Source of the DNA: Sphaeroforma arctica JP610
Taxonomy: Eukaryota
Length of the DNA: 33,632 nt
Assembly: GCF_001186125.1 (NCBI RefSeq)
Contig: NW_014040161.1
Coordinates: 1 to 33,632, forward strand
Reading direction: 5' to 3'
Part shown: piece by piece, positions 8,079-9,745 of the stretch
Numbering within the stretch: the stretch's first letter is position 1
Layout of the letters: each line of letters begins with the position of its first letter
Program-made: the position numbers and the translations under genes
Notes under the pieces: model-generated
What the model saw: the letters and a program-made list of their open reading frames with translations, nothing else
The model's database searches: none
Told to the model about the DNA's origin: nothing

Positions 8079-9647
8079 AATAGTGTACCATACCCATTGC
8101 CACCCTGAAGCGACATAGTGAAGCTCCTTTCAAGTTAAATACGTATATAAATTTCATAGGTGCTTACAGGTGCAATGCAGTAACATCTGTGAACTCAACG
8201 GACAATAATGAAACCTTTGCGCCATGCAAGTGCCTGATAGCTACACGAATGCATGTGTACAAAACCATATAGAACCAGTCAACACGCTGTTCAGGAAAAG
8301 ACGTAAACATAGTTGCGCGCGTGACGAATGGTGGTATGGATACTATGCTGAACCTTTCCCGTTGGTGCAATATCTGATTTCGACTGTTTACGAATGAAAA
8401 TATCCATCTGTGCGTGCGACTGGGGTGTGATGACAGATAACAGGCAACCGAATACGTCTGAAGAAGCTTTGCGTGTGTTTATAACTTCTTTTGTGAACTA
8501 TGGCAATGATGAGTTATAACCGCCTTCTCGCAAGCGCACGTAATCGACTGTGAAGCACACTTAACGGGAGTGCAGGACTGCTTACGTGTGCAATCTCTTG
8601 CATCCACCACGTTCAAAATTAAATTGCAAATGTCATGGTTGGTGTATACCGAAATTGTTGCCAACGCTTAAAATTCAGTCGTGATATGTCGAGCGCTAAC
8701 TCCCTCACCCACTAGACCTATGCGATAAATAGTGCATTGACGACAGAAACGTGGAACACAACGAATATATTTTCATAATATGAAACTACAACTAGCATAG
8801 TCTCGTGCTTCTATTGTTATAGTGTCAGAGACTACATATAAGCCCTCGGGCAATCCAGTCTGAATGCGAGATAAATTAAGCTAAGTCATTACCATTCCGA
8901 CGCGCCACTACTTGCTCAGCGGAGAGTGAAATGGAAGCCCTTTTTAAAAATATTGTATACATGTTTGTGTATGTGTACACAATACACGCAATCCCTTTAT
9001 GAAAATATAAATGTAATGTGGAAACGAATAAACGAAGACCCTTCGCATAACAAACTAACCTGACTATAAATGTGACGCATTCAGTGACCGGCAAAGGACA
9101 AAACTGTAGCCATATGACCAAAGGCCTAAGTGCGCACAGACTCTGCATCTCATGATCGACTAGCACTAGTGTAGTGCTCACATGTATGACAGTTATCACC
9201 TCGAGAATTCTAAGCAGATTCTGTCATTACAAGCAACATAGCTTAAATACAAGGTTTGTATCAATCACTCAACCGCTTGTCGCAATAGCTTAATGTTCGC
9301 ATTCACATAAAGTCAGGCGCGTATGCACCACTCACCTTTGCTCATGTTTGTGTTCAACTGCTATAATCCAACAGTCGATTCCAAATCAAAATCTACAGTA
9401 TGTCTCGTCAGTTTCCCGTGTCGGTTGTGCACATTGTGTACATATGTGTGTGTGTGTAATGTACAGCTCTTTTAGCAACTGCGCCTATATACACACCTCG
9501 CATCACCGGGCCCACATCGTTCGTGTCGTGGATATTTAATCCACTTATCGATCAAAAGACGTTGTCATTATTTTAAGATATACGTCAAGTACTGATATTA
9601 TTATTTCACGAATGTATCATCTGAATTCGCTCACCCGATTGTGAACT

Positions 9648-9736
9648 CCGCAATATCTTCGGATGCGCAGGTTCGAGTCCTGCACCTGTCATTTACTTAG
9701 CAGGTTGGCCGAGTGGTCTAAGGCGTTGTGTTTAGG
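9648..9736 (+). tRNA. Circularly permuted tRNA-Leu(UAG): 3' half 9648-9691, 7-nt spacer, 5' half 9699-9736
   Basis: 3' half: CGCAA, variable arm TATC-TTCG-GATG, T arm GCAGG-TTCGAGT-CCTGC, ACCTGTC-A73. 5' half: AGCAGGT, D arm GCCGAGTGGTCTAAGGC, TTGTG, TT-TAG-G. The halves pair into a class II cloverleaf with an A1:C72 mismatch. Confidence 0.75.
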
Positions 9737-9745
9737 AAACAATCA

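Follow-up and report, generated by a model that had tools for sequence, protein, structure and literature searches.

Does a tRNA gene whose two halves lie in reverse order give rise to a mature tRNA in a likely holozoan host, and is the structure formed by its leader and trailer the place at which the halves are joined? We addressed this in Sphaeroforma arctica JP610 (likely an ichthyosporean/holozoan host), using contig NW_014040161.1, of which the window, i.e. the whole stretch of DNA analysed, comprises 33,632 nt. We found a type II (37/38) circularly permuted tRNA-Leu(UAG) gene that is flanked by a BHB-like motif. The results described below indicate that this motif is most probably the splice junction of a multi-copy permuted tRNA-Leu(UAG) whose halves are joined G37-to-C38, and that the enzyme reading it is likely TSEN.

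A permuted tRNA-Leu(UAG) gene

All elements of the gene lie on the + strand, with the 3′ half upstream of the 5′ half and a spacer linking the acceptor ends, an order that is also found in contigs of several sequencing runs. The 3′ half (9648-9691), defined by ARAGORN and by the run X23 described below, comprises C38, its strand of the anticodon stem, the variable arm, the T arm, the acceptor strand and A73. It is followed by an intervening spacer of 7 nt (9692-9698) that closes the acceptor stem and by the 5′ half (9699-9736), which holds its acceptor strand, the D arm, the anticodon TAG (9733-9735) and G37 at 9736. In its native order, the window gave no tRNA match with ARAGORN and none with Rfam at the gathering score; by E-value, Rfam returned weak matches only (tRNA with 15.7 bits at 9699-9752, and YrlA with 14.4 bits). 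Once 9699-9736 is placed before 9648-9691, ARAGORN calls a tRNA-Leu(tag). The rejoined gene contains U8, G15:C48, G18G19, U33 and U54U55C56, the exon consensus listed for permuted tRNAs being U8, R15:Y48, G18G19, U33 and U54U55C56 (PMC3978253). A second copy of the permuted gene is absent within the 33,632-nt window.

Downstream of the trailer, T runs (4 T, then 5 T; 9746-9755) are likely to act as an RNA polymerase III terminator, and T runs are also found 3′ of the trailer in the other readable copies. Upstream, where a TATA-like sequence is expected of type II permuted genes, the region 9570-9606 is AT-rich. The leader contains a small hairpin (9622-9633; 3-bp stem and 6-nt loop) that possibly lies near the transcription start and that, in the window copy, is not stable when folded alone. 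The window (9615-9636) and the leaders of paralogs have in common the motif YCA(A/T)CTG (with a single deviating letter in one of the leaders), after which comes a small hairpin. In the paralogs the hairpin loop is likewise 6 nt long, and the stems change in a paired fashion, as judged by eye on loose contig ends; position 5 of the loop, again by eye, is G in eight of the nine leaders readable over at least 25 nt. From these alignments, the motif and the hairpin are a possible start site or processing element.

Leader and trailer can form a relaxed splice motif

The original prediction described a BHB-like structure built from the leader, the anticodon loop and the trailer, and its coordinates for the leader, loop, bulge and trailer strands all agree with the sequence. 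The leader strand GATTG (9637-9641) and the trailer strand CAATC (9740-9744) form the closing helix, in which five of five pairs are complementary and which is supported by folding and by complementary variants among copies. Next to it, the leader strand TGAA (9642-9645) can pair with T32-T33-T34-A35 (9731-9734), all four central pairs being complementary with one G-U. In this anticodon-leader helix T32 lies opposite A9645, the antepenultimate base of the leader, so that A9645 is the A-I partner of U32. On one side, C-T-C38 (9646-9648) forms a 3-nt bulge at the 3′ splice site, with the cut after its second base, between 9647 and 9648, where X23 pieces start. On the other side, the larger bulge GGAAA (9735-9739) is 5 nt long and contains the 5′ splice site, which the joined X23 contigs place between 9736 and 9737. 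The claim that this is the A-I pair and bulge geometry read by TSEN is borne out by comparison with the human enzyme, to the structure of which U32-A9645 and C-U-C38 fit (PMC10539383).

The BHB-like label itself stands as a relaxed, hBH-type motif and falls as a strict BHB. The strict archaeal-type motif (hBHBh′, with two 3-nt bulges round a 4-bp helix) is ruled out by the 5-nt bulge at the 5′ site, a length that also occurs in the two other readable trailer variants.

Drawing leader/trailer pairs at random from the window, we obtained both helices in 35 of 200,000 pairs, counting a 4-bp central helix in register plus a closing helix of 5 bp, all Watson-Crick, for which 10 registers were allowed, a definition chosen post hoc with the sequence already known. 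The central helix alone was present in 2.1% of the random pairs and the closing helix alone in 1.1%.

Small-RNA-type contigs join G37 to C38

Eight runs were aligned out of 24 indexed, 20 of which contain part of the stretch. Among these, X23 has a species label identical to that of the best DNA runs. The index records no run as RNA, the RNA status of X23 being a guess, and the X23 data are contigs from filtered records. We take the terminal letters of its contigs to be small-RNA adapters. In X23, depth is 1e5-4e5 over 9648-9691 and about 2e4 over the 5′ half, while depth is nil in the bins 9570-9641 and 9741-9810 and at spacer position 9693. All eight X23 pieces listed (90 contigs aligned) span 9648-9691, and many pieces of the 3′ half extend exactly from C38 to A73. 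By comparison X5, labelled 'RNA?', has a flat flank depth, as in DNA.

Two joined forms in X23 bring the end of the 5′ half (A35-G36-G37, read as AGG) directly before 9648. The first carries 12 letters matching positions 26-37 (depth 83.8) and the second carries AGG (depth 1565.6). In both, the recorded place of departure is one base short of the letters, either a counting offset or a one-letter loss, and the adjacency of G37 and C38 is independent of it. The G37-to-C38 joint, with or without letters between, is absent from the other seven runs (77 contigs aligned). Collectively, the exon-only cover, the joint and the starts at 9648 agree with the claim of a processed substrate that is cut after 9647 and after 9736. 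In the first joined form G26 (9725) is read as T, which is the reading expected of a methylated G26 and is a hint of a modified, mature tRNA.

At the 3′ end, about 86% of the X23 depth continues after A73 with a letter other than the T of the window, and the consensus of eight X23 contigs at this place is one non-templated C (plus adapter-like letters). A full CCA was not seen among the X23 loose ends listed for this one run. As the exon sequences are common to twin copies, the X23 RNA cannot be assigned to the window copy.

Position 1 of the tRNA is not encoded as G in the readable copies

In the rejoined gene, position 1 (9699) is an A that is mismatched with C72, and G is not encoded. Position 1 is A or T in seven of seven readable copies (A in the window and two others, T in four), another contig of high depth differs from A at this place (the letter itself is not printed), and C72 has no listed change among copies. 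By comparison, 1:72 is paired in all 78 distinct conventional control genes (74 G-C, 2 A-T, 1 G-T and 1 T-A), these being environmental genes with the same D arm and not ichthyosporean. The missing G1 hints, at the level of gene sequence, at a 5′ repair of this nuclear tRNA.

Because no readable copy encodes G1, we propose that a Thg1-like 3′-5′ polymerase may add G opposite C72, a reading whose probability we place just short of even. It is doubtful that the mismatch is kept in the mature tRNA, a little more doubtful that the tRNA starts at G2, and improbable that a G pairs to C72 with U71 bulged. The depth sum of X23 fits 5′-half pieces that begin at 9700, with no start at 9699 (85212.9 observed versus 85213.1 modelled), a fit that is weak because contig building trims tips. 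As of 2014, editing at 5′ and 3′ ends had not been linked to nuclear-encoded tRNAs except for G-1 of tRNA-His in the text of PMC4284800, and cytosolic TLP has been described with a role then not known (excerpts of PMC5041481 and PMC10275265). Among the literature matches listed, we found no mention of Thg1 or TLP.

These data also bear on whether the window copy itself is in use. It could be that the family is active while the window copy, with its A at position 1, is silent or defective and the RNA comes from its twins, which we consider unlikely. Reads that twins share, the depth sum without starts at A9699 and the T-stem changes that some copies carry are all compatible with a silent copy; however, the leader, trailer and terminator of the window copy are intact and complementary, and editing or the removal of contig tips would equally hide A9699. 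Furthermore, as every readable copy lacks G at position 1, A1 does not single out the window copy.

A proposed route from transcript to tRNA

We propose that the RNA polymerase III transcript runs from the leader through the 3′ half, the spacer and the 5′ half into the trailer and would end at the T runs. The halves are predicted by folding to form a cloverleaf closed by the spacer, with the leader and the trailer clamped together by the 5-bp helix, so that leader and trailer would mimic an intron that is opened in its loop. TSEN, the presumed enzyme, would then measure from the tRNA body, the weak U32-A9645 pair and the 4-bp helix would form on the enzyme, and cuts would follow after 9647 and 9736. 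G37 would next be ligated to C38, a product that is seen in the X23 contigs, and the resulting circle would be opened at the spacer by RNase P and tRNase Z, by analogy with algae. In X23 the RNA ends at A73, mostly followed by the non-templated C. G1 may finally be supplied as proposed above.

The same cuts could be made in a different order, with no circle, if RNase P and tRNase Z opened the spacer first and the paired halves were spliced afterwards, leaving position 1 mismatched or missing. This order would account for the lack of an RNA contig at spacer position 9693 and for the many 3′-half pieces reaching exactly from C38 to A73. Small-RNA libraries, however, need free ends and would miss circles. 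Moreover, genes of this type in red and green algae are reported to pass through a circular intermediate (PMC3978253), and we regard the order without a circle as unlikely and prefer the circular route.

Folding of the free RNA and of control genes

Folding of 9630-9755, a check that had been put forward with the prediction, upheld one of the two helices: in ViennaRNA the closing helix has a probability of 0.95 (0.95-0.99 when the transcript is short or the tRNA body is constrained) and the central 4-bp helix one of about 0.01, the anticodon stem reaching 0.9. An alternative fold, with pairs C9646-G36 and U9647-A35 and a GAA/GAA internal loop, is 5.6 kcal/mol lower than the central-helix fold. 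The competing local hairpin TTGTG (9639-9643)/CGCAA that had been pointed out also exists, with a probability that depends on the start of the transcript: 0.00-0.01 for starts at 9630-9636, 0.18-0.28 for starts at 9622-9628, and a dominant 0.71-0.89 for starts at 9610-9620. Taken whole, the region shows no excess stability over its shuffles (z -0.75).

As a control for the folding, we took the 47 intron calls made in the retrieved loci and folded the 14 distinct genes with a canonical intron, all of them unvalidated environmental genes. A complementary 4-bp A-I helix is found in 13 of the 14, and for eight of these 13 ordinary intron genes its computed probability is 0.11 or lower. The A-I pair is C32-G in all 13, versus U32-A here. 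Since the probability of the A-I helix is low in many ordinary intron genes, a low computed value does not refute the geometry. The model does suggest that the free RNA probably does not rest in the central-helix geometry and, as free-RNA folding disfavours the central helix, that this helix likely forms on the enzyme.

The folding also raises the possibility that processing at 37/38 needs the closing helix alone, TSEN cutting by its ruler on the alternative fold while the central helix never forms. The alternative fold has a computed probability of 0.85-0.95 besides its lower energy, and the conserved leader end is also compatible with it. Nevertheless, its sixth pair, U9642-A9739, breaks in copies with C at the trailer place, whereas the one leader variant with an A-to-G change retains the central helix through a G-U pair with U33. 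As ViennaRNA misses the A-I helix in many ordinary intron genes too, and strict conservation of the A-I pair and the 3′ bulge is described for human TSEN substrates (PMC10539383), cutting by the ruler alone appears rather improbable, and we favour recognition of the A-I pair and bulge by TSEN.

A family of permuted copies and its origin

In X14, the flank has a depth of 154 and the half-core contigs have depths of 1545 and 1581, corresponding to about 10 copies of each half, depth giving no exact copy number. The exons are near-identical among copies while spacers (3-7 nt where cleanly readable) and flanks vary. Among UAG-type copies, the leader strand of the closing helix reads GATTG, GGTTG, GGTTA or TGTTA (on loose ends), and the readable trailer variants are CAATC, TAACC and TAACA, each starting five bases after A35. 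Each of the three trailer variants has an exact Watson-Crick complement among the four leader variants, the linkage of a leader with its trailer on one sequence being that of the window only. The leader end is identical to that of the window in seven alignments, provided that unlisted differences near the piece ends lie elsewhere. One leader, from organism D, is one base short. Runs X20 (organism D) and X17/X18 (organism C) contain small shares at low depth and were used solely as sources of variants.

It is very improbable that tandem duplication left the permuted copies behind as relics and that conventional tRNA-Leu genes, missed by the contigs, supply the joined RNA. The data are at contig level rather than from a whole genome, and the full stretch is not covered by any single piece listed, but the seven other runs aligned have no G37-to-C38 joint, in every readable UAG-copy trailer a T tract follows G37 at a distance of about 12 nt or less, the sole DNA joint (X5, 9749 back to 9639) is that of a neighbouring permuted copy behind a T tract, and spacers and flanks vary beside near-identical exons.

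The X5 joint, at single-copy depth, represents two permuted copies in tandem, about 255 nt apart. A piece in X14 and X5 (9668-9737) corresponds to a second permuted isodecoder of about two copies that has T at position 1 and compensating changes at pairs 6:67 and 7:66. Another piece, in X14, X16 and X5 (9638-9731), is a degenerate permuted paralog, possibly Leu(AAG), in which 6 nt are inserted behind the T arm and the closing helix is missing. An orphan 5′-half piece is also found among the copies.

The family likely arose by tandem duplication of an intron-bearing gene followed by loss of the outer exons, a model given in PMC3978253 that fits the anatomy described here. An origin of the leader as a decayed 5′ half is possible, since the leader repeats the 5-nt strand of the anticodon stem. 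In three of the other leaders, however, this strand is broken although the pairing partner of the closing helix is retained, which makes an intron the better-fitting source.

More tentatively, tRNA-Leu(UAG), and probably more Leu tRNAs, may be encoded only as multi-copy permuted genes lacking G1, with transcripts that would be spliced by TSEN, opened in the acceptor loop and completed by templated 3′-5′ addition of G1; we hold this wider proposal to be possible rather than probable.

Neighbouring sequence

The window also contains a gene for the mitochondrial DNA polymerase gamma (POLG; 14100-33489, - strand), which has many exons and runs off the window end. Twenty-one pieces match CFRG1421T1, CFRG being the identifier style of Creolimax fragrantissima (PMC6981761), and the introns are rich in simple and tandem repeats. 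For one exon, CFRG1421T1 is the best of 669 homologs (87%), and over all pieces the identity is 65% with CFRG1421T1 versus 49-55% with the seven animal and fungal proteins compared. One POLG-exon homolog search returned no matches. From the likeness of POLG to the Creolimax protein, the host is likely an ichthyosporean, and as such a single-celled organism close to animals. In a separate region (7073-7686), open frames on both strands consist of tandem repeats; the Pfam matches of these frames to Dam1, DUF6127 and NET2A are spurious, given the tandem repeats and the lack of homologs. The Dam1 match had initially pointed to a fungal host, a reading that we dropped in view of the POLG comparison.

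Permuted patterns in metagenomes and viruses

We searched metagenomes and viruses for the pattern of the gene. The specific permuted-Leu pattern gave no metagenome match, and a looser pattern gave at least 126 metagenome loci, in a scan covering 17 of 64 parts, and 81 viral loci. The 233 looser-pattern matches, the window included, comprise 194 ordinary tandem tRNAs, 30 loci with a full tRNA on one side and nine with neither, and no close relative of the window gene besides the window itself is among them.

In one metagenome contig (L076, - strand, about 280-365) we observed a second candidate permuted tRNA-Leu(TAG), with G1:C72, G2:U71, a 6-nt spacer and a T run just 3′ of G37, for which ARAGORN calls Leu(tag) only when the halves are rejoined. 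Six other loci (L025, L034, L048, L086, L121 and L137) contain AT-rich tRNA clusters with a swapped-half tRNA-like element that is without a normal anticodon arm and has shared flanks (TTTCA..CAGCAA upstream and GAAAC downstream); these elements may be YrlA-like mimics.

Comparison with known systems

Permuted tRNA genes numbered 34 in 2014, in six algae and one archaeon (PMC3978253). We found no report of a permuted tRNA in opisthokonts in the article texts searched, and no pointer to permuted tRNAs in fungi or holozoans in the titles and abstract starts of the literature matches listed. The word tRNA is absent from the main text of an ichthyosporean review (PMC11286789) and of the Creolimax paper (PMC4739763). 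In the excerpt of a 2026 text that covers photosynthetic lineages, permuted tRNAs are named solely for algae and archaea (PMC13578239), and in that of PMC6379350 for archaea only.

Two features are added here to a known gene class, namely about ten copies and no encoded G1. Earlier permuted genes have been explained by unusual promoters or endonucleases in algae and one archaeon. If our reading is true, an animal/fungal-type polymerase III and TSEN can handle genes in which the A box follows the B box, this family would be the first of permuted tRNAs in opisthokonts, and standard tRNA annotation would miss whole isoacceptors here, ARAGORN and Rfam having found none in the window. If G1 is restored as proposed, this would furthermore be the first case, other than G-1 of tRNA-His, of 5′ editing in a cytosolic tRNA encoded in the nucleus. 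By lacking G1, these tRNAs are natural candidates for the substrate of cytosolic Thg1-like polymerases, the targets of which are left open in PMC4284800 and PMC5041481. As in mitochondrial Thg1-like 5′ editing, there is an encoded mismatch within the first three acceptor positions, and the 3′ strand is an intact template (PMC4284800, PMC5041481, PMC10275265); unlike it, the present genes are nuclear, and editing is here what we infer.

Compared with canonical intron-containing substrates of TSEN/SEN, the motif shares a pyrimidine at 32 whose partner is the antepenultimate base ahead of the 3′ site, a 4-bp helix, a 3-nt bulge at the 3′ site and a flexible 5′ site (PMC10539383, PMC4090602). It differs in that the 'intron' consists of two strands, the leader and the trailer, so that splicing would circularise or re-order the halves rather than excise a piece between them.

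The closest likeness is to the type II genes of Cyanidioschyzon merolae, Ostreococcus, Micromonas and the Bigelowiella natans nucleomorph, with which the gene shares the 3′ half placed first, the 37/38 junction, a terminal relaxed BHB and a downstream T stretch (PMC3978253). It also shares with them a short spacer (7 nt here, within a known range of 1-74) and a class II isotype, Leu and Ser being the commonest known cases (PMC3978253). The resemblance to algal permuted pre-tRNAs that had been suggested thus holds for the type II anatomy and does not extend to the host, which is likely a holozoan and not an alga. In the algal genes, an hBH motif is found as well, and a circular intermediate is opened by RNase P and tRNase Z (PMC3978253). 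In contrast to the algal type II genes, G1 is not encoded here, and whereas the table of PMC3978253 has no more than two genes per anticodon and junction and does not contain Leu(UAG), the present tRNA-Leu(UAG) has about ten permuted copies in addition to permuted paralogs.
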